From assembly GCA_965199335.1 (NCBI GenBank), contig CBDAQZ010000001.1, forward strand, positions 139,051 through 203,050: 64,000 nt of DNA. The letters are read 5' to 3'. Below, piece after piece: positions 1,970 through 12,178 of the stretch. This DNA comes from Alphaproteobacteria bacterium (lineage in GTDB: Bacteria; Pseudomonadota; Alphaproteobacteria; CALMVH01). Made by a program: the position numbers and the translations under genes. The notes under the pieces were generated by a model. The model was given only the letters and a program-made list of their open reading frames with translations. It searched no databases and was not told the DNA's origin. Each line of letters begins with the position of its first letter. Position 1 is the first letter of the stretch.

Positions 1970-2743
1970 ATGGCTGGATTGAAGGGTGCCGACAGGCAAG
2001 TCGTAAAGGATGCCGAGGCGCTGGCCGTGTTCGCCGCGAAATGGGTGACGGCGACGGCGCTGGAAACGCCCGGCACGGTGACCATCAGCCTGTCCGGTGG
2101 ATCGACGCCCAAGCGGCTCTACGAGCTGCTGGCGACGACGCACCTGATCGACTTCCCGTGGAACCGCGTCCACTGGTTCTGGGGCGACGAACGTTATGTC
2201 GGGCCCGAGGACGAGAAGAGCAATTACCACATGACCAACCTGGCGATGCTGTCGAAGGCGCCGATCCCGCCCGGCCATGTGCACCGCGTGCTGACCGAAT
2301 CCGAAACCGTGGAGATCGCCGCCGACCGCTACCAGTCGAACCTGCAGCGCCATTACGGCGCGCGTGTCCTGGACCCGGTGCGGCCGCTGTTCGACATCAT
2401 GCTGCTGGGCCTGGGCGAGGACGCGCACACCGCCTCGCTGTTCCCCGGCAACAAGGCATTGAAGGAAAGGGAAGCATGGGTCGTATCGGTGCCCGACGGC
2501 ACGCCGCCGCCGCGCATCACGCTGACCTTTCCCGCGCTGAACAGCAGCCGCCACACCGTCTTCCTGGTAGCCGGCGAAGCCAAACGCACGCCGCTGGAGC
2601 GCGTCTGGAAAGGCGACCCGTCCGCCCCTTCCGCCCATATCGCGCCGACCGGGCAGCTGCATCTGTTTGTCGATGAGGCGGCGATCGCAACCCTCTCCCC
2701 GATGGGAGAGGGAGGGGCCCGTCGCGTGGCGACGGGAGGGTGA
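1970..2743 (+). CDS. pgl: 6-phosphogluconolactonase; C-terminal tail and stop codon lie within a repeat arm
   Basis: LSGGSTP, FWGDERYV, SNY, LLGLGEDAHTASLFP and RITLT motifs. Confidence 0.95.
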   Translation: MAGLKGADRQVVKDAEALAVFAAKWVTATALETPGTVTISLSGGSTPKRLYELLATTHLIDFPWNRVHWFWGDERYVGPEDEKSNYHMTNLAMLSKAPIPPGHVHRVLTESETVEIAADRYQSNLQRHYGARVLDPVRPLFDIMLLGLGEDAHTASLFPGNKALKEREAWVVSVPDGTPPPRITLTFPALNSSRHTVFLVAGEAKRTPLERVWKGDPSAPSAHIAPTGQLHLFVDEAAIATLSPMGEGGARRVATGG

Positions 2744-2746
2744 GGG
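2690..2746 (+). repeat. Palindromic arm (two hairpins plus GGGTGAGGG), left end of element 1
   Basis: CCCTCTCCC-CGAT-GGGAGAGGG and CCCGTCGC-GTG-GCGACGGG stems read directly. Confidence 0.9.
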
Positions 2747-2753
2747 AAGCCGC

Positions 2754-3146
2754 ATGATGCCGATCGTGCAGGCAAGAACTTTGCGAAAGGAAATGACGCA
2801 AGCGGAGCGAAAGCTCTGGAAGCTTCTGCGTAGCAAGGTATTGGGAAACTGGAAATTTCGCAGGCAGCATCCTATCGGTCAGTACATCGCGGATTTTGTT
2901 TGTGTGCAGGCAAGGCTGATTGTCGAAGTCGATGGCGGGCAGCATAGTCAGAATTCTTATGATGCTGAACGTACCGCCTGGCTGGAGTCTTGCGGTTGGA
3001 ACGTATTGCGTTTCTGGAATAATGAAGTGATGCAAAATGCCGACGGTGTTATTGAAACGATCGGACTGCATTTGAATTCACCCTCACCCTCCCGCTCCTA
3101 CGGAACGGGTCCCTCCCTCTCCCATCGGGAGAGGGTCTCGAAATGA
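2754..3146 (+). CDS. DUF559 / Vsr-like endonuclease domain protein
   Basis: ARxLRxxMTxAE...LW, KFRRQHPIGxYIADF, LIVEVDGGQH, DxxRTxWL, GWxVLRFWN family motifs; GAGGG SD at 2742-2746; visibly lower GC than flanks. Confidence 0.9.
   Translation: MMPIVQARTLRKEMTQAERKLWKLLRSKVLGNWKFRRQHPIGQYIADFVCVQARLIVEVDGGQHSQNSYDAERTAWLESCGWNVLRFWNNEVMQNADGVIETIGLHLNSPSPSRSYGTGPSLSHRERVSK
3081..3136 (-). repeat. Palindromic arm, right end of element 1 (inverted relative to left arm)
   Basis: CCCTCACCC...CCCGCTCC-TAC-GGAACGGG...CCCTCTCCC-ATC-GGGAGAGGGT. Confidence 0.9.
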
Positions 3147-3832
3147 CCCAGGACGAAGCCAAGCAGGCGGCTGCCGAAGCCGCGTTGAAAGAGGTGCATG
3201 ACGGCATGGTGGTCGGGCTGGGCACCGGTAGTACGGCCAAGGTGTTCGTGGCGGCGCTGATCGAGCGCGTCAAGCGCGAGAATTTGAAGCTGCTGGGCAT
3301 CCCCACCTCCGAGGCGACGGCGCATCAGGCGGAGGCGGGCGGGATTCCGCTGACCGATTTCGCGCGCAATCCGACCATCGACGTGACCTTCGACGGCGCC
3401 GATATCGTCGACCTGAAAAGCTTCGCCATGCTCAAGGGCCTCGGCGGCGCATTGCTGCGCGAGAAGATCGTGGCGCAGGCCAGCAAGCGGCTGGTCATCA
3501 TGGTCGACCCGTCAAAGGTGCCGGCGCAGTTCGGGGGCATCGTACCGGTCGAGATCGTGCGCTTCGGGTTCGAGGCGACCCTGGGCCGGTTGCAGCAGAT
3601 AGCGCCGCTGAAACTGCGTCCGGAAAAAGAGTCGGACCGCACATTCGTAACGGATAACGGGAACTATATCGCCGATCTGGACCTTCCCATCATCGACGAC
3701 CCGCAGGCGCTCCAGACGCGCCTGAAATCCATCGCGGGTGTGGTCGAAACGGGATTGTTCATCGGCATGGCGCACACCATCATCATCGGCAGCGAGCAGG
3801 GAGCACAGGTGCTGGTTCGCCCGGCATCCTGA
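3143..3832 (+). CDS. rpiA: Ribose-5-phosphate isomerase A
   Basis: VGLGTGST, DGAD, KGLGGALLREKIVA, TDNGNYI and GVVETGLF motifs. Confidence 0.96.
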   Translation: MTQDEAKQAAAEAALKEVHDGMVVGLGTGSTAKVFVAALIERVKRENLKLLGIPTSEATAHQAEAGGIPLTDFARNPTIDVTFDGADIVDLKSFAMLKGLGGALLREKIVAQASKRLVIMVDPSKVPAQFGGIVPVEIVRFGFEATLGRLQQIAPLKLRPEKESDRTFVTDNGNYIADLDLPIIDDPQALQTRLKSIAGVVETGLFIGMAHTIIIGSEQGAQVLVRPAS

Positions 3833-3840
3833 TCGCCGAT

Positions 3841-6800
3841 TTGAAACACCATCTCAGCCGCAAGCTGCTGCTGGAGCTGATAAGCCTGGCCGTCGTGTCG
3901 CTGGTCATCATGGCCGGCTTCGTGTTCTGGCGGCTATCGCGCGGACCGGTCAGCGTCGATTTCCTGCGGCCCGTGGTGCAGGCGCAGTTCCATGACCGGA
4001 CCGACATGCACCTGTCCGTCGCGCATCTGCGCATCGACGCCCAGACATGGGATGCGCCGGTCACGGTCAGGATGGAAGACGTCGATATCAAAAATGAAAA
4101 AAAGGCGAAGCTGCTGTCCATCGCAGTGGCGCAGATATCCGTTTCACGCCGCGGCCTGTTCACCGGCAGCATCCATCCCGTCGCGTTCGATCTCGACAAG
4201 CCTGCCTTCCTGCTCGACAACGCGCCGCCTGAACCGGCGCAGGCGAAGGGTGGCGGGCCCAAGCCAGACAGCGACACCAACCTCAGGCGCGCCCACGATA
4301 TTCTGGACGAGCTGGTCGACCCGAAACCGTTCAGTCGCTTTTCCGGCTGGGATCACTTGTCCGTCGGCGGCGGGTCGATTGCGTTGCAGCAGCCGTCGGG
4401 CCAGTTGATGCTTGTATCGGATCTGGCCGCACGGCTCGACCGTACGGCGGTGGGGCTGAAAGGGCAGTTGCACGGTGTACCCGTCGGGCAGGCGCAGGGT
4501 GAACTGATCGGCGCCATCGAATTGAATCGGGGTGAAAAGGGCAGTGTGTCCTTCCACAGCAGCGCGATCCCGCTCTCCGCTTTCGGCCTGCTGCCATCGC
4601 TGGCCGATCTGCAAAAGGATACCGTACCGGTCGAGGCGACGCTGGCCGCCACTTTCGGCGGCGTGGAACTTGCCGATGCGCGGCTGGACGTGATCCTGGG
4701 CAAGGGCCAGATCGTCTACCAGCCGACGATACCGCAGCCGGTTGATATCGCGGGTGGCAAGGCGCAGCTACTCTATCAGGCAAATCCCGAACATGCCGAA
4801 CTGCACGGCCTAGAACTGGATCTGGGCGGCCCGCATCTAACGGCGGAAGGCAAAGCCGACACCAAAGGCGGCGTGATGACCGCTGCGATCGATGCTGCCG
4901 TGTATGCGCTGAAGCTCGACGATTTCCCGCGTTACTGGCCCCAGGATGTTTCGCGCGGCGGCCGCAGATGGGTACTGTCGAACCTGTCCAAGGGAGTTGT
5001 GCAGAAAGCGACAATCCATGCCGAGGCGACCGCGCCGCGTAAAGATCCCGCCATGCTGGACATCGCCGCCGCCACCGGCACGATCGCCGTCAGCGGCGCC
5101 AATATTCATTATTTCGGTGAACTACCGCCGGTCCAGGATGCGAATGCCGATATCGTCTACGATACGAAATCGATGACCATCGCCATGACCGGTGGCCACG
5201 CCAAGGATTTCGCGATCAAGGACGGCACCATAGTCCTGAGCGGGTTCGACGCGCCCGACCAGGCGATCACCATCGATCTCGATCTGGCAGGACCGGTGGC
5301 AAGCGCGCTCGACATCATCAACCAGCCGCCGCTTGGCTATGCCAGCAAGGTGCAGATCGTGCCCGGCAACGTCGGCGGCACGGCTGAGACGCATCTCAAG
5401 ATGGCGTTCCCGTTGCTGGACTCCCTCAAGGTCGACGATCTGGGACTGGTATCGCGATCGCTGCTGCACGACGTATTGATCCCGAACGCGATCGGGCACA
5501 TGACGGCAAGCTCCATCAACGGCATGCTGTATGCCGGAATGAAGGGAATGGAGCTGACGGGCAGGGCCTCGCTGCTGGATATACCGGCTGCGATCGACTA
5601 CCGGCAGGATTTCGCAAAGAACGGCCCCAGCATCGCCACCTTCAGCGGCAGCCTGGATGGCCGCCAGCGCGACGAGCTGGGAATCGATTTCCCCGACCGG
5701 CTCAAGGGACCTGTCAACCTGTCCGGCAAATACAGTTCGCAGGGCAAGGACGGCACGGTCGACATCGATGTCGACATGACCCCGGCGGATTTCAACATCG
5801 ACGAGATCGCGTACCAGAAGCCGCCGGGTAAGCCGGGCAGCGCGAAGCTGGGTATCAAGCTGGCAGGCGGCGCGATCACCGCCATCGACCCGATCGCCGT
5901 CGAGGCTCCCGGGTTCTCCGCCGGCGGCTCCGCCGGCTTCGACCCCGATACGAACAAGCTGTCGAGCCTGACGCTCGACCATCTGCGCGCCGATGAAACC
6001 GACATGACAATCACTATGGCGCCGATGCCGGAAGGCGGATCGAAGATCGACCTGACGGGCAGTGAATTCGATGCACGCAAGTTCCTGCACAAGCGCCGTG
6101 AGAAGAAGACCACGACAGCTGCCGAAACCACGCCGCCCGTGCCGCTGGAGGTCGATGTGGACCTGGCGACTGTCAGGACATCGGATACCAAAACGCTGGC
6201 CAAGGTAAAGGGGCAGCTGGTGCTGATGGGCCGCAAATGGCATAGGGCCGATTTCAGTGCCACGGCCGATGGCAAGGATATCCTGCTTTCCTACCTGCCG
6301 GATTCGAACGACGCCAATCCGTCCTATACGTTGCGCGCCAGTGCCAGCGATGCCGGGGCGGCGTTCGCCGGCTTCGCGCTGACCGATTCCATCAAGGGCG
6401 GCATAATGACGATCGACGGCAAGAAGGCGGCTGCGACCGAGCAGCAGCCCGATCCGCCGCTGGCAGGCACGCTGGCGCTGACCGATTTCAGCCTGATCAA
6501 CCCGCCCGGGTTCGCGCGGCTTTTCAACCTGCTGTCGGTCAGCGGCTTCGGTGACGCCGTGGCCAGTTCGGACATATTGTTCGATTCGCTGAAGGGCAAA
6601 TTCGAGATCGACGATGCCGAGCTGCGGGTCAGCGACGGAAAGCTGGTAGGCAGCGCGATCGGCCTGACCATCGCCGGCACCGCCGACCGAGACGCGGGAA
6701 CCCTGGACCTTCATGGTACCGCCGTGCCGGCCTATGGTGCCAACCGCATCATCAACAAGATACCGGTGCTGGGTCCCTTGCTGACCGGGGGGGACGGGCA

Positions 6801-6948
6801 GGGCGTGTTCGCCGCCAGCTACAGCATCACCGGCCCCTACGAGAAACCCGACGTCTCGATCAACCCGCTATCGGTGTTCGCGCCCGGCGTGCTGCGCGAC
6901 CTGCTGTTCACGCCATCCGACCCGGAGATGGGGGCGCCGGCTAAATAG
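3841..6948 (+). CDS. YhdP/AsmA-like (DUF3971 plus AsmA_2) envelope protein
   Basis: 1035 aa with N-terminal TM anchor (WRLSRGPVS), YWP...RRWV motif, and C-terminal GTAVPAY-x-N..IPVLGPLL-GG..GVFAASY.I.GP...P.VSINPLS..APG signature. Confidence 0.85.
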   Translation: MKHHLSRKLLLELISLAVVSLVIMAGFVFWRLSRGPVSVDFLRPVVQAQFHDRTDMHLSVAHLRIDAQTWDAPVTVRMEDVDIKNEKKAKLLSIAVAQISVSRRGLFTGSIHPVAFDLDKPAFLLDNAPPEPAQAKGGGPKPDSDTNLRRAHDILDELVDPKPFSRFSGWDHLSVGGGSIALQQPSGQLMLVSDLAARLDRTAVGLKGQLHGVPVGQAQGELIGAIELNRGEKGSVSFHSSAIPLSAFGLLPSLADLQKDTVPVEATLAATFGGVELADARLDVILGKGQIVYQPTIPQPVDIAGGKAQLLYQANPEHAELHGLELDLGGPHLTAEGKADTKGGVMTAAIDAAVYALKLDDFPRYWPQDVSRGGRRWVLSNLSKGVVQKATIHAEATAPRKDPAMLDIAAATGTIAVSGANIHYFGELPPVQDANADIVYDTKSMTIAMTGGHAKDFAIKDGTIVLSGFDAPDQAITIDLDLAGPVASALDIINQPPLGYASKVQIVPGNVGGTAETHLKMAFPLLDSLKVDDLGLVSRSLLHDVLIPNAIGHMTASSINGMLYAGMKGMELTGRASLLDIPAAIDYRQDFAKNGPSIATFSGSLDGRQRDELGIDFPDRLKGPVNLSGKYSSQGKDGTVDIDVDMTPADFNIDEIAYQKPPGKPGSAKLGIKLAGGAITAIDPIAVEAPGFSAGGSAGFDPDTNKLSSLTLDHLRADETDMTITMAPMPEGGSKIDLTGSEFDARKFLHKRREKKTTTAAETTPPVPLEVDVDLATVRTSDTKTLAKVKGQLVLMGRKWHRADFSATADGKDILLSYLPDSNDANPSYTLRASASDAGAAFAGFALTDSIKGGIMTIDGKKAAATEQQPDPPLAGTLALTDFSLINPPGFARLFNLLSVSGFGDAVASSDILFDSLKGKFEIDDAELRVSDGKLVGSAIGLTIAGTADRDAGTLDLHGTAVPAYGANRIINKIPVLGPLLTGGDGQGVFAASYSITGPYEKPDVSINPLSVFAPGVLRDLLFTPSDPEMGAPAK

Positions 6949-6980
6949 ACCTCTCCCATGGGGAGAGGTCTATTTAGCCG
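6938..6980. repeat. Perfect 20-bp-stem palindrome (solo terminal hairpin of the repeat family), probable bidirectional terminator
   Basis: CGGCTAAATAGACCTCTCCC-ATG-GGGAGAGGTCTATTTAGCCG between convergent genes. Confidence 0.85.
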
Positions 6981-7677
6981 ATTCCGCCAACCGTCGCACC
7001 GCCTCCGCCACCAAGACTCTCCGCTTCTCGACCATCGGCGCGTTTCTTTCGCGCAGGCGATTCACAAGCGCCGGATCGGCGATGCGCGGCGAGCCGCAGG
7101 GGAAGGGCGGTTGCGGATCGTATTCCACGAAGAGCTGGATTTCCTCGGCAACGGCACGGCCATGCAGTTCGGCCGCGATGGTCAGGGCGACATCGATGCC
7201 GGCGGTTACGCCGCCGCCCGTGATGCGGTTGCGATCTGTTACCGTACGCTCGTGTATGGGAACGGCGCCGAAGGCAGGCAGGAAATCCATCGCCAGCCAA
7301 TGCGTCGCAGCCCTGTAGCCATCCAGCAGGCCGGCTGCGCCAAGCAACAGCGCGCCGGTGCACACGGCGGTGACATAGCGCGCCCCGGCGGCCTGTTCGC
7401 TCAGGAACGACATCAGCTGTTCGTTACCCAGATTATCGTCGACGCCTGGCGAACCGCCGGGCACGAACAGGATGTCGGAGCGCGGCGCGGTGGCGAAGGT
7501 CGTATCGGGCAGCAGCGTCAGCCCATGCTGAGTACGAACCGGAGCTAGCGTTTCGGCAATCAGGGTGATCGTCGTACCCGGCATGCGTGCGAAGATTTCG
7601 TACGGGCCGGTAAAATCCAGCTGCGTCATGCCGGCGAACATGACCATGCCGATGATAGTTTTTTCGGGTGCGCTCAT
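6970..7677 (-). CDS. DJ-1/PfpI family protein (isonitrile hydratase-like)
   Basis: LDFTGPYE, DILFVPGG, VCTGALLLGAAGLL, THW, GGGVTAGID and EYDPQPPF motifs. Confidence 0.92.
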   Translation of the reverse strand: MSAPEKTIIGMVMFAGMTQLDFTGPYEIFARMPGTTITLIAETLAPVRTQHGLTLLPDTTFATAPRSDILFVPGGSPGVDDNLGNEQLMSFLSEQAAGARYVTAVCTGALLLGAAGLLDGYRAATHWLAMDFLPAFGAVPIHERTVTDRNRITGGGVTAGIDVALTIAAELHGRAVAEEIQLFVEYDPQPPFPCGSPRIADPALVNRLRERNAPMVEKRRVLVAEAVRRLAESAK

Positions 7678-7691
7678 AACGCGATCCTATC

Positions 7692-7814
7692 ACCTCTCCC
7701 TGTGGGAGAGGTCAGCCATTTCGCAAGAAATGGATGGGTGAGGGGCTAACGGATGGTTCGGCGAGCCCCTCACCCGCCCGGCTATGCCATTCGACCTCTC
7801 CCACGGGGAGAGGT
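7692..7814. repeat. Gene-less MITE/REPIN-like copy: two inward-facing arms around a 16-bp spacer
   Basis: ACCTCTCCC-TGT-GGGAGAGGT..CCATTTC-GCAA-GAAATGG..GGGTGAGGGGCT [16 bp] AGCCCCTCACCC..ACCTCTCCC-ACG-GGGAGAGGT. Confidence 0.85.
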
Positions 7815-7830
7815 CATTTTAGGCATCTAT

Positions 7831-8226
7831 TTACGAGCTGCAGCAGCCGCCGGCGTTTGATTCGCCAGACTTCTCGGCGGTGCTGAAGCTTTCGCCGCAG
7901 CCGCAGCCACCGGTCTTGTTCGGGTTCTCGAACACGAACGACTGCTCGTACTCGTTAGACTTGAAGTCCAGTTCCGAGCCGATGATGTACATGATCGCGC
8001 TGGGCTCGATGAACAGCTTTACGCCCTGGTCCTCCACCACTTCCTCGTCCTCGCGCTGGGTCTTGGCGAATTCCATCGCGTAGGCGAGGCCGGAGCAGCC
8101 CTTGGAACGGACGCCGACGCGCAGGCCGATCGCATCGGGGGCCTGGGCGGCCATAAGCGTCTTGATCTGTTCCGCGGCGGCAGGGGTCAGGGTCAGGGCC
8201 TTCGGGGCAGGTGAGCGCATATCCAT
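7831..8226 (-). CDS. sufA: A-type Fe-S carrier (IscA/SufA/HesB)
   Basis: GCSGLAY and NPN...CGCGESF motifs; GAGGAG SD upstream of ATG 8226. Confidence 0.92.
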   Translation of the reverse strand: MDMRSPAPKALTLTPAAAEQIKTLMAAQAPDAIGLRVGVRSKGCSGLAYAMEFAKTQREDEEVVEDQGVKLFIEPSAIMYIIGSELDFKSNEYEQSFVFENPNKTGGCGCGESFSTAEKSGESNAGGCCSS

Positions 8227-8237
8227 GGTTCTTCTCC

Positions 8238-8639
8238 TCAGTACATGTTCAGTTGCAATTTGGCGGTATCGGCCATACGAGCGGGATTCCACTCCGGGTC
8301 CCATACCAGTTCGACTTCCACGTTGCCGATGCCATCGGCGGCAGCGACGGCGTCGCGCACCATTCCGGGCATTTCGCCTGCTACCGGGCAGCCCGGCGCG
8401 GTCAGCGACATCGTTATACTTATATCAGACACCGCAGGGTCCGTCTCGGTTCCCGTGATGTCTACAGTGTATATAAGACCGAGTTCGTAAATGTTAACCG
8501 GTATCTCCGGGTCATAGACGGTCCGCATCGCCTTCGCGACCGCTGGCCAGGCCGGGTGATCCCGTGGCGCCACGACCTGCGGCGGCTCGGCCTCGGGCAT
8601 GTCGTCGATCGGGGCTGCGGTGGTTTCCTGGTTTTCCAT
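8238..8639 (-). CDS. sufT: SufT / DUF59 Fe-S assembly protein
   Basis: VYDPEIPVNIYELGLIY, MSLTAPGCPVAG and LVWDPEW motifs. Confidence 0.92.
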   Translation of the reverse strand: MENQETTAAPIDDMPEAEPPQVVAPRDHPAWPAVAKAMRTVYDPEIPVNIYELGLIYTVDITGTETDPAVSDISITMSLTAPGCPVAGEMPGMVRDAVAAADGIGNVEVELVWDPEWNPARMADTAKLQLNMY

Positions 8640-9115
8640 CAGTCTGTTTCTTCCGAACTGGCCTGGCCCGCGCCATCAAGGGCGGCCTTCATCGTGTGCC
8701 ATGACAAGGTAGCGCATTTGACGCGCACCGGGAACTGGCGGACACCCGCGATCACTTCCAGATAGGCCAGATCGTCGGCGCTGACATCCTTGCCGGGGGC
8801 GTCGCCGCTGGTGCACAGGGCGTGGAAGGCGTGGAACAGCGATTCGGCCTCGGGCCCTGTCTTGCCCTTCAGCAATTCGGTCATAATCGACGCCGACGCC
8901 ATCGAGATCGCGCAGCCATTGCCGGTGAAGGCGATGCCGTCGATCGTGCCAGCGTCGTCCAATTTCAATTCGACGTTGAACTCATCACCGCACAGGGGGT
9001 TACGGCCTTGCGCGTGGCGATTGGCGCCCGTTAGCTTGGCACGGTTGCGGGGATTCTTGCCGTGATCCAGGATCACGTCCTGGTACAGATCGCGCAGGTC
9101 GGTCGCCTCGATCAT
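8639..9115 (-). CDS. sufU: SUF-system NifU-family protein (SufU)
   Basis: LYQDVILDH, NPLCGD, GCAISMASAS and FPVRVKCATLSW motifs. Confidence 0.93.
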   Translation of the reverse strand: MIEATDLRDLYQDVILDHGKNPRNRAKLTGANRHAQGRNPLCGDEFNVELKLDDAGTIDGIAFTGNGCAISMASASIMTELLKGKTGPEAESLFHAFHALCTSGDAPGKDVSADDLAYLEVIAGVRQFPVRVKCATLSWHTMKAALDGAGQASSEETD

Positions 9116-10380
9116 CCGAAGATCTCGCGCACTTTTTCCAACGCCGATGCCAGTACGTCGATTTCTTCCTGGGTGTTGTACAGGCCCAGCGAGGCACGGG
9201 CGGTCGCCGCGATGCCCAAGCGGTCCATCAGCGGCTGGGCGCAGTGATGGCCGACGCGTATGGCGACGCTGGCGATGTTGTCGACGACGGTGCCGATATC
9301 GTGCGCGTGAATACCGTCCATGGTGAAGGACACCAGTCCTGCCTTGTCCTTGGCGGTGCCGTAGATCTTCAGACCCGGCACATGCGACAGCCGGGCGGTC
9401 ATGTATTTCAGCAGCCCGTCCTCGTAGTCTGCGACGGCCTGGCGCCCCAGCCCCTCGATGTAATCGATCGCGGCGGCAAGGCCCACGGCCTCGGCGATTG
9501 CGGGGGTGCCGGCTTCGAAACGGCCGGGCGGTTTCTTGAACGTGGTCTTGGCGAAGGTCACGCGCTCGATCATGTCGCCGCCGCCCTGGTAGGGCGACAT
9601 TTTCTCCAGCTGCGCATATTTGCCGTACAGCACGCCGATGCCGGTCGGGCCGTAAAGCTTGTGGCCGGAGAAGACGAAGAAATCACAGCCCAGCGCCTGC
9701 ACGTCGATCGGCATGTGCACGACCGACTGGCAGCCGTCCAGCAGCACGGGGATGTTGTGCGCGTGCGCCAGCTTGACGATCTCGCGTACCGGCATGATCG
9801 TGCCCAGCGCGTTCGACATGTGGCTGACGGCGACCAGCTTGGTGCGCGGACCGATCAGCTTCTCGAACGCCTCCATGTCAAGCATGCCGGTGTCGTCGAT
9901 CGGCGCGACCTTGATCTCGATCCCGCGCTCGGCCTTCAGCAACTGCCACGGCACGATGTTGGCGTGATGCTCCAGCTCGGTCAGCAGCACCTCGTCGCCC
10001 TTGCCCAGGAACTTGCGCCCCCAGCTGGCGGCGACCAAATTGATGGATTCGGTGGCGTTGCGCGTGAACACGATCTCGTCGGCGCTGGCGGCGTTGATGA
10101 AGCGGGCGACCTTGGCGCGCGCCTGCTCGAACAGCTCGGTCGATTTCTGCGACAGGTAGTGAACGCCGCGATGGATGTTGGCGTAGTCGTGGCTCAGCAC
10201 GTTGGTCATCGCGTCCAGCACCGCCTGCGGTTTCTGCGCCGATGCGGCGCTGTCAAGGAACACCAGCGGACGATTGTAGACCTTGCGCGACAGGATCGGG
10301 AAATCGGCGCGCACGCGTTCGACGTCGAACGAATTGTGACCCAGATGCGGGATTTTCTTGGCAGCCATGGCGGTCATCAT
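9112..10380 (-). CDS. sufS: Cysteine desulfurase SufS
   Basis: FLDSAASAQKP, ANIHRG, EHHANIVPW, SGHKLYGPTGIG and RVGHHCAQPLM; ATGA overlap with sufD stop. Confidence 0.96.
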   Translation of the reverse strand: MMTAMAAKKIPHLGHNSFDVERVRADFPILSRKVYNRPLVFLDSAASAQKPQAVLDAMTNVLSHDYANIHRGVHYLSQKSTELFEQARAKVARFINAASADEIVFTRNATESINLVAASWGRKFLGKGDEVLLTELEHHANIVPWQLLKAERGIEIKVAPIDDTGMLDMEAFEKLIGPRTKLVAVSHMSNALGTIMPVREIVKLAHAHNIPVLLDGCQSVVHMPIDVQALGCDFFVFSGHKLYGPTGIGVLYGKYAQLEKMSPYQGGGDMIERVTFAKTTFKKPPGRFEAGTPAIAEAVGLAAAIDYIEGLGRQAVADYEDGLLKYMTARLSHVPGLKIYGTAKDKAGLVSFTMDGIHAHDIGTVVDNIASVAIRVGHHCAQPLMDRLGIAATARASLGLYNTQEEIDVLASALEKVREIFG

Positions 10381-11642
10381 CCCTCTCCCTTTACACCCAG
10401 AACAGACGCCGCATGCGCCCGGAAGGCATCGCGTACCGTTTCGTTTTCGACCAGGTCGATGCTGGACCCGATGAAGGCCCCGATCAGCATCTGCCGCGCC
10501 TCGTCGTGCGGGATGCCGCGGCTGCGCAAATAGAACAGCGCATCCTCGTCCAGCCGGCCCGATGTCGCGCCATGACTGCATTTGACGTCGTCGGCATAGA
10601 TTTCAAGTTCCGGCTTGGCATTTACTTCGGCGGTGGACGACAGCATCAACGACTGGTTCAGCTGGAACCCATCGGTTTTCTGCGCGTCCTGAGCGACGAA
10701 AATCTTGCCCTGGAACACGCTGCGCGACGTACCGTCCATGACATGGCGATAGGTCTCGCGGCTGCGGCAGTTGGGATACATGTGCCGTATCTCGGTCGTG
10801 GTATCCGCGTGCGAATTACCAGATAGAACGTGCGCGCCATTCAGGCGGACCTCGCTATCGGGGCACGGCATGTCGACCCTGACCTGATGCCGCGACAATC
10901 TGCCGCCCGTGGTCAGGCTGAAGGTATCGTACAGCGACTTATGCTCGACCTGGACGGCGCTTGTCGCAAGAACGATTGCCTCCGGTCCAACTTGCTGCAG
11001 CCTGTAATGGTTCAGGGTGGCACCGTCCGAAATTTTGATCTCGCTGGCAATCGTCCCAACAAAGCTACCGGTTCCGACATGCCGCTCGATCAGGCACATC
11101 GTTGTGTTCGGATTGATCGAGACGTCCAGCTTCGCATGCCAATCGGCCTTACCGGAACTGACAAAGCAGATTTCGATCGGTGTCTCGACAGTCTTGTCGA
11201 AGGGAGAAATGATCCGCAAGCCATCGACAAACAATGCCGTATTGAGGGCACCGATCGATTGCTCTTCGAGACCGAAATTGCCGACCCAGTTCTTATTCAC
11301 GCCAGCCTGGCTATCTCCCGCCATGTCCCAGATGCCAACGTCGCTGGAAATAACCGGTGCCAGATCGGAGTGTTCGAGGCTGTAAACACCATCGATGAAA
11401 ACGGCGCGCGCAGACCCGGGCACAAGCGGATCGGGGATGGTCGCTGGACCGGATCCATCGATCGAATCCCTGGATAGCAGAGGGATGAGAACCGGCGCCA
11501 GATTGGTATATTTCCAGCTTTCGTTGCGCGGCGTCGGTAGGCCGGTTTCACGATACGTGCTGGCGGCTTTCTGGCGCAGCTCCGTCAGCCATGCCGGGCT
11601 TTCCGGCAGGTGTTCGAGCTGATCGGCGAAGGGCAGGGTCAT
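10377..11642 (-). CDS. sufD: Fe-S assembly protein SufD
   Basis: GLPT.RNESWKYT, FQGKIFV..DAQKTDG, KPELEIYADDVKCSHGAT and FYLRSRGI motifs. Confidence 0.95.
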   Translation of the reverse strand: MTLPFADQLEHLPESPAWLTELRQKAASTYRETGLPTPRNESWKYTNLAPVLIPLLSRDSIDGSGPATIPDPLVPGSARAVFIDGVYSLEHSDLAPVISSDVGIWDMAGDSQAGVNKNWVGNFGLEEQSIGALNTALFVDGLRIISPFDKTVETPIEICFVSSGKADWHAKLDVSINPNTTMCLIERHVGTGSFVGTIASEIKISDGATLNHYRLQQVGPEAIVLATSAVQVEHKSLYDTFSLTTGGRLSRHQVRVDMPCPDSEVRLNGAHVLSGNSHADTTTEIRHMYPNCRSRETYRHVMDGTSRSVFQGKIFVAQDAQKTDGFQLNQSLMLSSTAEVNAKPELEIYADDVKCSHGATSGRLDEDALFYLRSRGIPHDEARQMLIGAFIGSSIDLVENETVRDAFRAHAASVLGVKGEG

Positions 11643-12174
11643 GATCTTTTCCCTCCTTGCAGCGGCACACCCTCACCCCAGCCCTCTCCCATCAGGGAGA
11701 GGGAGCCGTTCGAATTTACCTCTCCCTCATGGGAGAGGTCGGCGCCCGCAGGGCGTCGGGTGAGGGTGTGCTGGCGATGCAGCGAAGCCTTTTGCAAATG
11801 ACGCAGCAATGTTTCCGCAGTGCCATTCATGTTCTGTAAAACGTCATTGTTCCAGAAGCGGATGACAGTCCAGCCGCGATCTTCAAGCCAGCGCGTACGA
11901 TTTATGTCGTTCTGGTTTTCACAATGCTGACCGCCATCGATCTCCACGATCAGCAAAACTTCGGCGCATGCGAAGTCGGCGACGTAGGGGCCGACCGGGT
12001 GCTGCCGGCGGAATTTCCAGCCGGTGAAAGCTTCGCCGCGGATGGTTCTCCAGAATTTGCGTTCGGCATCGGTCATGTTTGTGCGAAGTTTGCGCGCACG
12101 CTCGATGCGGGTAGAGACACCCTCACCCCAGCCCTCTCCCATGAGGGAGAGGGAGCTATTTTGCAGCTCGGTCA

Positions 12175-12178
<4 letters not shown>
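11639..12178 (-). CDS. DUF559 / Vsr-like endonuclease domain protein with repeat-encoded termini
   Basis: ARKLRTNMTDAE, KFRRQHPVGPYVADF, IVEIDGGQH and GWTVIRFWNN; peptide SLSLMGEGWGEGV occurs at both ends; ATGA overlaps with sufC stop and sufD start. Confidence 0.88.
11667..12156 (-). mobile_element. Putative DUF559 cassette (element 2) with three palindromic arms, inside the suf operon
   Basis: Arms 12117-12156 and 11718-11769 face inward around the nuclease core; extra arm 11667-11706 is a 39/40 direct repeat of 12117-12156. Mobility is inferred. Confidence 0.7.

Follow-up and report, generated by a model that had tools for sequence, protein, structure and literature searches.

Two DUF559 nuclease genes in a 64,000-nucleotide stretch of an alphaproteobacterial genome (hereafter the window; G000:C1:139051-203050, where G000 is the source genome and all other G numbers are comparison genomes) are each enclosed by a pair of inverted, structured repeats, here termed arms. 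We found that DUF559 genes are flanked by such arms across diverse bacteria, and that the arm-flanked DUF559 unit is gained and lost as a whole. Judged by sequence, the arms match the published BoxC/PIT/TM intrastrand-triplex motif, with the same three-block design and the same core sequences. On balance, each gene-bearing copy is probably a member of a widespread selfish nuclease-repeat module, comparable to RAYT/REPIN systems or to homing endonucleases, in which the nuclease would act on the folded arms and the unit would spread by repair-copying. This reading rests on the association of gene and arms, their co-occurrence in genomes, duplication-free insertion where relatives have empty sites, the decay states of one locus, conservation of the catalytic residues and purifying selection.

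DUF559 genes and their arms

An arm consists of a hairpin, CCTCTCCC-N3-5-GGGAGAGG, often a variable second hairpin, and then a third block, GGGTGAGGG, that faces the gene. One genome per species was scanned with two peptide patterns of the DUF559 protein as the sole criterion, which yielded 80 loci from Alpha-, Beta- and Gammaproteobacteria, Thermodesulfobacteriota, Myxococcota, Bdellovibrionota, Chloroflexota, Bacteroidota, Deinococcota, Omnitrophota and others. Inverted flanks, defined by a best inverted match between the 200-nucleotide flanks with a score of at least 14, are present at 60 of the 75 testable loci (five loci have flanks that are too short) and at one of 530 control positions shifted by 1.2-3 kb within the same loci. 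A regular expression for the three blocks matches 148 times in the 39,187 bp within 250 nucleotides of a gene and 40 times in the 516,843 bp elsewhere in these loci, which corresponds to 3.78 versus 0.077 matches per kb, a 49-fold difference, and at least one motif lies within 250 nucleotides of the gene in 64 of the 80. Loci without arms include Escherichia coli ycjD, one Legionella locus and one Phycisphaeraceae locus. Strong DUF559 matches from other families of the Alphaproteobacteria likewise have these arms, or G/A variants of them, on both sides, and all three DUF559 genes of G018, a member of another family, are flanked by the hairpins.

Gene and motif also occur together at the level of whole genomes. 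We compared DUF559 matches at E <=1e-20 with the presence of at least five matches to the pattern CCTCYCC-N3-9-GGRGAGG-N0-30-GGDDRGG in 301 alphaproteobacterial genomes that are at least 90% complete. Both are present in 60 genomes, DUF559 alone in 16, the motif alone in 23 and neither in 202 (odds ratio 33, Spearman 0.69), figures to be read with the provisos that kin are not independent, that the pattern misses some arm types and that each gene adds its own arms. With one genome per family the corresponding counts are 33, 9, 8 and 109, and without two unpublished genomes they are 59, 16, 22 and 202. The link persists at thresholds of 10 and 20 motif matches, and a reversed-pattern control gives zero in nearly all of the 301 genomes. 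Both expectations of an earlier note on this DNA, namely that DUF559 genes elsewhere would be flanked by such arms and that repeat number would track DUF559 presence, are therefore borne out; the opposite outcome it had considered, orthologues fixed at these loci without arms, is not what we see, as orthologues in related species retain them. DUF559 and the arms were each already known. However, we found no report tying DUF559 to BoxC/PIT/TM repeats in the literature searched, whose coverage left out most subscription journals and all supplements, and DUF559 is the first candidate partner enzyme for this repeat family.

The source genome (2.64 Mb, 61% GC, four contigs) contains 32 exact hairpins, compared with none for the reversed-pattern control, an excess that chance does not come near to explaining. 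Seven of these lie beside three DUF559 genes, 12 form six gene-less pairs, and 13 are solo or half elements. All three DUF559 genes, two of which are in the window, are enclosed by inverted arms; the third gene-bearing copy (G000:C1:507554-508000; PF04480, 126.5 bits) has the same arms. The features of the window are listed below.

2691..3135, plus strand: gene-bearing element 1 (445 bp), consisting of left arm, DUF559 gene and right arm, inserted in the last pgl codons just before rpiA
2692..2746, plus strand: left arm of element 1, with hairpin CCTCTCCC-cgat-GGGAGAGG at 2692-2711, a variable hairpin, and third block GGGTGAGGG at 2738-2746
2754..3146, plus strand: DUF559 open reading frame (ORF) 1, 130 amino acids; PF04480, E 9.5e-45, 151.4 bits, domain at 2769-3071
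3081..3135, plus strand: right arm of element 1, with CCCTCACCC at 3081-3089, a variable hairpin, and hairpin CCTCTCCC-atc-GGGAGAGG at 3116-3134
6939..6979, no strand: solo hairpin (6950-6968) in a 41-nucleotide palindrome between the convergent YhdP-like and DJ-1/PfpI genes
7693..7813, no strand: gene-less arm pair (arm, 22-nucleotide spacer, inverted arm) between the DJ-1/PfpI and sufA-like genes
11671..11702, minus strand: extra solo arm next to element 2, a near-exact direct repeat of the arm at 12121-12152 with a different loop
11719..12152, minus strand: gene-bearing element 2, between sufC and sufD, with an arm at 12121-12152 (N-terminal side), the DUF559 gene, and an arm at 11719-11766 (C-terminal side)
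11639..12178, minus strand: DUF559 ORF 2, 179 amino acids as the longest ORF; PF04480, E 3.5e-38, 130.3 bits, domain at 11795-12106

The earlier note had described most of this inventory: two DUF559 genes with 56 of 97 core residues identical, each between inward-facing arms, together with a gene-less pair and a solitary hairpin. Both genes match PF04480 and their domains are 56% identical, in agreement with that count; the pair and the hairpin are present, and the extra arm at 11671-11702 is an addition. The absence of a transposase or integrase, also noted then, agrees with a Pfam scan of the 10 ORFs between 1925 and 12178, in which neither was found. The gene order by Pfam is pgl, DUF559, rpiA, YhdP-like, DJ-1/PfpI, sufA-like, sufU/nifU-like, sufS, sufD and DUF559, and the gene after the second DUF559 gene is sufC, named by position. 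The GC content of the DUF559 domains is 0.49-0.55, compared with 0.59-0.66 in flanking genes (0.49 against 0.64-0.66 for the gene of element 1).

ORF 1 runs through the right arm to a stop codon on an ATGA overlap with rpiA (3143-3146). ORF 2 starts on an overlap with the sufC stop (12175-12178), passes all three arms and likewise stops on an ATGA overlap, with the sufD ATG (11639-11642). Since the arms have no stop codon in the DUF559 frame, the annotated proteins carry arm-encoded tails, a source of false extensions wherever ORFs span the arms. The gene-less pair has 22 nucleotides between GGGTGAGGG and CCCTCACCC, or 16 if a 3-bp stem extension is counted, and its predicted DNA fold of -47.2 kcal/mol (z -8.9) was matched by none of 200 shuffles.

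The arms and the BoxC/PIT/TM motif

The triplex motif (TM; Holder 2015, PMC4666352) had earlier been named BoxC and PIT. As described in the text of that report, it consists of a pyrimidine block, a loop, a complementary purine block, and a second purine block able to lie in the groove as a third strand. It was found in more than 260 genomes, with 23 copies in E. coli K-12, where five of the sites are inverted pairs, termed 'palindromic TM' (PMC4666352). The window arms have the same three-block layout with a mirrored second purine block. The earlier note had likened the arms to rhizobial RIME-type repeats; the match established here is to BoxC/PIT/TM. However, a nuclease gene lies between the inverted pair here, and the main text of the report gives the motif neither an associated gene nor a function as promoter, terminator or mobility element; 'endonuclease', 'DUF' and 'Vsr' are words that it does not contain (PMC4666352). 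According to the same text, TM loci vary between strains more than control loci do, and the motif is tied to local instability.

The third block is more often a mirror image of the purine arm than a direct copy. Among 170 hairpins with asymmetric purine arms, the mirror image fits better in 75, the direct copy in 25, and 70 are ties; full matches number 46 for the mirror and 13 for the direct copy. The observed mirror match is 0.763, compared with a mean of 0.702 and a maximum of 0.717 in a control with shuffled partners. Purine-motif triplexes form in DNA and not in RNA, and triplex formation by the E. coli motif was recorded in vitro as single-stranded DNA by circular dichroism and nuclear magnetic resonance, not in duplex DNA or in vivo, as far as the text of the report extends (PMC4666352). 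The mirrored block and the restriction of such triplexes to DNA together indicate a role at the DNA level, and triplex formation by the window arms as single-stranded DNA is predicted. The variable linkers also tend to fold: 56 of 68 are more stable than their own shuffles (mean -6.2 versus -2.6 kcal/mol), and the linker in the left arm of element 1 has a fold of -10.3 kcal/mol.

One arm (11716-11767) resembles the Rfam family whalefall-1 (RF01762), the consensus of which has a hairpin, a variable hairpin and GGGUGAGG in the same arrangement. The score of 24.6 bits is below the gathering score of 37, and whalefall-1 was described as a non-coding RNA, in the available portion of Weinberg 2010 (PMC2864571), solely from whale-fall metagenomes. 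Because the third purine block is mirrored, we take the arms to be DNA rather than RNA elements, and the whalefall-1 'RNA' family may be a DNA repeat of the BoxC/PIT/TM kind.

Two simpler roles for the purine blocks were considered and set aside. The outer purine block does not serve generally as the Shine-Dalgarno sequence of a downstream host gene: an outward ORF start lies 3-16 nucleotides past the outermost hairpin at 21 of 136 ends and at 449 of 2720 random positions, a test that is crude because high-GC genomes hold many long ORFs. The block does stand 7-10 nucleotides before rpiA and before the gene beside the third copy; sufD has its own AAGGAGG beyond the extra arm. Similarly, the third block is not a general ribosome-binding site of the DUF559 gene, as an in-frame start follows it within 0-14 nucleotides in only 29 of 58 loci, and we retain this as a local feature. 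In Deinococcus the third block is on the far side from the DUF559 gene, unlike the placement of a ribosome-binding site.

Occupied and empty sites

The earlier note had suggested that empty pgl-rpiA and sufC-sufD junctions might be found in relatives. G002 and the congener G001 indeed have an empty pgl-rpiA junction, with the stop of pgl overlapping the ATG of rpiA and without arms, which indicates that arms and gene came together. G001 has no DUF559 match, yet it contains 13 hairpins. Excising 2691-3135 in silico restores an in-frame pgl end of equal length. One metagenome contig, with about 96.5% identity upstream, bridges 2682 and 3140 with 12 different nucleotides, which is weak evidence (depth 3.8, side 28); the remaining metagenome contigs are mostly arms of other organisms and conserved gene parts. 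The flanks of G000 and G001 are 76-85% identical and thus too divergent to fix the element ends at base level.

For sufC-sufD the suggestion holds in part: the native stop/start overlap is present in G002, but G001 holds another small element. That insert has the ends GGGATCCATGG...CCATGGATCCC, and small palindromic inserts seem to have landed at this junction repeatedly. Elsewhere in the suf region, a gene-less pair of G001 lies one intergenic gap away from that of G000, and the differing gaps point to separate events. The direct repeats 11671-11702 and 12121-12152 (about 40 bp, with different loops), together with a 12-nucleotide joint, bracket element 2. Speculatively, such a layout would result if a circular form had entered a resident arm by a single crossover.

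The prfA|prmC junction of Azospirillum, named from the flank translations, offers a larger series of alleles. Among 41 genomes, 27 are filled, seven are clean empty, two have a solo hairpin, one a solo arm, one a decayed copy, and the state of three is unknown. Thirteen of the filled sites were inspected by sequence and 14 were deduced from BLAST matches that include the gene, 11 of them contiguous across it and three (G326, G331 and G335) dependent on matches that are partial or lie at contig ends; a frameshift is possible in one filled copy (G349). Four clean empty sites (G343, G325, G315 and G323) have 4 nucleotides between the prfA stop and the prmC start, and the other three differ in detail. 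The solo-hairpin sites retain the outer segments of the element, and the decayed allele is a remnant of the DUF559 N-terminus. An arm pair without a gene was not seen at this junction in the 41 genomes.

Empty and filled alleles interleave on a tree of the flanking gene, and the supported branches force at least five changes ('empty') or six ('filled'), although this is a quick single-gene tree that recombination could blur. In the sister pair G351 (filled) and G343 (empty), about 640 bp are inserted in the middle of a GCGC without duplication, and the roughly 24 nucleotides outside each arm are imperfect inverted repeats as well. Being palindromic, the outer hairpins repeat each other in both direct and inverted orientation, and the solo hairpins fit a deletion between them. 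DUF559 alleles at this site share 64-78% nucleotide identity, compared with 84-95% for the flanks, and their arms and outer segments differ between allele groups, which suggests replacement or re-invasion.

A target-site duplication was considered and rejected: ATGACC at both ends of the suf insertion is treated as chance, and nothing similar is found at pgl|rpiA or in G351/G343, as the earlier note had found for the window. The junctions occupied by elements are pgl|rpiA, sufC|sufD, prfA|prmC, paaD|paaZ and a yqeY-domain gene|dnaG. The paaD|paaZ element is a Deinococcus case, inside the paa operon; the Deinococcus DUF559 records are plasmids or chromids.

By likeness to the Azospirillum solo hairpins, the solo hairpin of the window is a possible deletion footprint of an element. 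The 41-nucleotide palindrome around it is perfect, and the YhdP-like (plus strand) and DJ-1/PfpI (minus strand) genes share the final codons and stop GCT AAA TAG, because each half of the palindrome supplies one gene end.

The nuclease and the nature of the unit

All three DUF559 proteins of the source genome pass the curated PF04480 cut-off of 20.6 bits, and PF04480 and a weak PF18741 match are the only Pfam matches in the window copies. In NCBIfam they match only 'DUF559 domain-containing protein', below its cut-off. The solved structure closest to ORF 1 is PDB 3HRL (E 1.6e-28), and this match suggests a Vsr-like PD-(D/E)XK fold. The family profile matches the homing endonuclease I-Bth0305I (3R3P) over the catalytic core with an E value of 5.6e-4; the match to Vsr (E 0.17) is not significant. 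Residues D42, E53, D55 and H59 are invariant in all 15 aligned sequences, and the ratio of nonsynonymous to synonymous substitution rates (dN/dS) is 0.07-0.37 over 70 comparable orthologous pairs, as expected for purifying selection. Membership in a defence system was considered and rejected, PADLOC giving weak partial matches only (E 0.0079 and 0.00043). Close relatives are rare on plasmids (32 of 72,556 records, mostly chromids or chromosome-sized) and on phages (2 of 50,697 records).

Arm type follows the protein tree more closely than host class does. It requires 14 changes on the tree, compared with a mean of 24.8 for shuffled assignments (none of 500 shuffles was as low), whereas host class requires 20 changes versus 25.3. 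All 40 genes with GGGAGAGGG-type arms encode K immediately before FRRQ (column 29 in the alignment behind the 95-protein tree; K29 in the domain of window copy 1), compared with 7 of 30 that have other arm types. Of the 30 with GGGGGAGGG- or GGGGAAGG-type arms, 23 encode R, Y or another residue at this position, which is a candidate determinant of specificity.

In the reading we favour, a Vsr-like PD-(D/E)XK nuclease of about 110-130 amino acids would be carried between two inverted BoxC/PIT/TM copies. When the DNA is single-stranded or supercoiled, the arms would form hairpins or an intrastrand triplex, and the nuclease would recognise and nick or cut the folded arms or the uninterrupted target. 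Repair of the break by copying from, or recombination with, another arm-flanked copy could then bring the unit into new sites and related genomes, and deletions between the palindromic hairpins would leave gene-less pairs, solo arms and solo hairpins. Both the action of the nuclease on the arms and the whole repair-copying route are steps that we infer.

A number of observations weigh against this reading. We know of no way in which a hydrolytic PD-(D/E)XK nuclease alone could transpose DNA. Paralogues within six multi-copy genomes (G263, G087, G209, G148, G000 and G018) share 67-83% nucleotide identity across the gene region, and a single 61-bp match in an arm region reaches 90%. Near-identical paralogues are absent from these genomes, and recent transposition is accordingly rejected: there have been no recent replicative bursts of the kind seen with insertion sequences or REPINs, and the occurrence of closely related copies at syntenic loci across species implies slow mobility. 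From these comparisons, the unit is old and slow-moving, not a bursting insertion sequence. The gene-less copies in the source genome are few, and each of the six pairs has its own variable hairpin and spacer. Of the 83 genomes with the motif, 23 have no strong DUF559 match, including G001 (12 motif matches), G140 (91) and G189 (117), and 16 of the 76 DUF559 genomes have fewer than five motif matches. In E. coli, ycjD lies beside sapF without arms within 4 kb, despite the 23 motifs of K-12; ycjD itself is present in 3378 of 5426 complete E. coli genomes. At two Deinococcus loci (NC_015170.1 120772-121113 and NZ_CP034185.1 298410-298763) the arms are turned round, with the third blocks outermost, and since arm polarity is not fixed, the arms are a poor fit to transposase-type ends. 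Finally, an independent-pairs test of the covariation between K and arm type found only two pairs on supported branches and has no power.

Much of the site evidence would also suit a classical free-standing homing endonuclease. DUF559 would then cut the empty host site, not the arms, and would be copied in via flanking homology after DNA uptake, with the arms as passengers that buffer the insertion, either as insulators or as recombination-prone ends. We judge this unlikely, if still worth serious consideration. The homing life cycle, in which an empty allele is cut and the gene is copied in, accords with insertion at precise gene junctions without target duplication, with clean empty alleles interleaved among filled ones, and with different alleles at a single site; divergent paralogues would suit one specificity per site. 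The likeness extends to the catalytic core, in which D, E, D and H are invariant among the DUF559 sequences and which is related to that of I-Bth0305I of the EDxHD family (PMC3239194, in the part of the text at hand), and a DUF559 gene of Thermosynechococcus was assigned to this family by its authors. A likeness in cutting and in copying into the empty allele would be visible here as the pattern of filled and empty alleles only. In contrast to I-Bth0305I, the DUF559 proteins of the window (130 and 179 amino acids) have no NUMOD or helix-turn-helix domains in Pfam, and there is no intron or intein. Proteins of about 110-130 amino acids without the NUMOD DNA-binding region would find long asymmetric sites hard to read. 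Homing also leaves unexplained why the same three-block motif is wrapped around the gene across phyla and why gene-bearing genomes hold tens to hundreds of further motif matches, and the covariation of the K residue with arm type points to the arms.

That the motif persists in 23 genomes without DUF559 would follow if the repeats were independent host sequences, spread by replication or repair accidents, and if DUF559 cassettes entered existing inverted pairs by recombination between arms. The link of the motif to local instability (Holder 2015, PMC4666352, as far as its text goes), the turnover of cassettes at one locus, and the enrichment of DUF559 among predicted inversion targets (Milman 2023, in the portion at hand) are consistent with such landing pads. 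However, the empty states known at pgl|rpiA and prfA|prmC have no arms, the expected arm pair without a gene is missing from the Azospirillum series, outer segments change along with the gene, and no source is offered for the spread of the motif itself; we consider this explanation quite unlikely. It is very unlikely, in our estimate, that DUF559 is a host enzyme of the Vsr type, for repair or a restriction-like function, with arms that provide regulatory or protective context rather than mobility parts. Such a host role does not account for presence/absence polymorphism at exact junctions with decay states, for several divergent paralogues per genome that each have their own arms, for the low GC content of the DUF559 domains, or for a protein tree that departs from taxonomy, and no methylase gene was found among the Pfam-scanned neighbours of the window copies. 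Purifying selection, vertical inheritance and rarity on plasmids and phages are in its favour. So are two reports that also count against a simple transposon: Caulobacter VsrA, a DUF559 protein, causes an SOS response when the ScmA cytosine methylase is missing, for which the authors propose very-short-patch repair, and Deinococcus DR_0221, another DUF559 protein, is induced after loss of N4-cytosine methylation, each as given in parts of the published accounts.

The selfish nuclease-repeat module that we favour has a close parallel in RAYT and REP-REPIN systems (reportedly the subject of work by Nunvar in 2010, Bertels and Rainey in 2011 and Ton-Hoang in 2012), a likeness proposed in the earlier note. 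The part of that proposal that stands is that gene and repeat belong together and are gained and lost as a unit. As in RAYT/REPIN systems, one small nuclease gene lies between inverted palindromic repeats that also form gene-less inverted doublets elsewhere in the genome; transmission is mainly vertical and chromosomal, target duplication is not seen, and repeat number is linked to the gene. The part that does not stand concerns the enzyme and its copies. DUF559 is a PD-(D/E)XK/Vsr-like hydrolase (PF04480) and not an HUH Y1 transposase (Y1_Tnp), its genes frequently exist in several divergent copies, a hairpin with a mirrored purine block takes the place of a REP with a GTAG tag, and the source genome lacks a large population of near-identical doublets, its gene-less pairs all differing outside the core blocks. 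Miniature inverted-repeat transposable elements and IS200/IS605 insertion sequences likewise have short structured non-autonomous copies next to a gene-bearing form, and IS200/IS605 elements are also said to lack target duplication. However, inverted ends are present here without target duplication and without a DDE or HUH transposase, the copies are not near-identical, and arm polarity varies.

A bolder reading is possible, though we hold it doubtful: BoxC/PIT/TM repeats could be the termini and remnants of a mobile element of a new class, whose sole protein would be a Vsr-like nuclease of about 110 amino acids that recognises a folded hairpin or triplex and reads the arm type through the residue before FRRQ (K versus R/Y). 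Such a nuclease-repeat partnership would be the first to combine a PD-(D/E)XK fold with a triplex-forming end. Few short bacterial repeats are as conserved and widespread as the BoxC/PIT/TM motifs, which occur in hundreds of genomes of many phyla and whose origin, to our knowledge, has gone unexplained since the 1990s; DUF559 is a nuclease 'domain of unknown function' that is very common. Linking them gives each a testable role, the repeat acquiring a candidate enzyme and the enzyme a candidate substrate, and short oligonucleotides and a small soluble protein would suffice for a direct test. The link would also add a second, independent case of a RAYT/REPIN-like lifestyle, based on another protein fold. 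A hairpin- or triplex-specific nuclease could serve as a tool, and solo hairpins annotated beside genes may be element scars, not terminators.

DUF559 domains are also found within much longer reading frames. G015 has two of them, in open frames of 623 and 612 amino acids with variant-type arms, and the translated sequence around them resembles the conserved central part of type I restriction S subunits.

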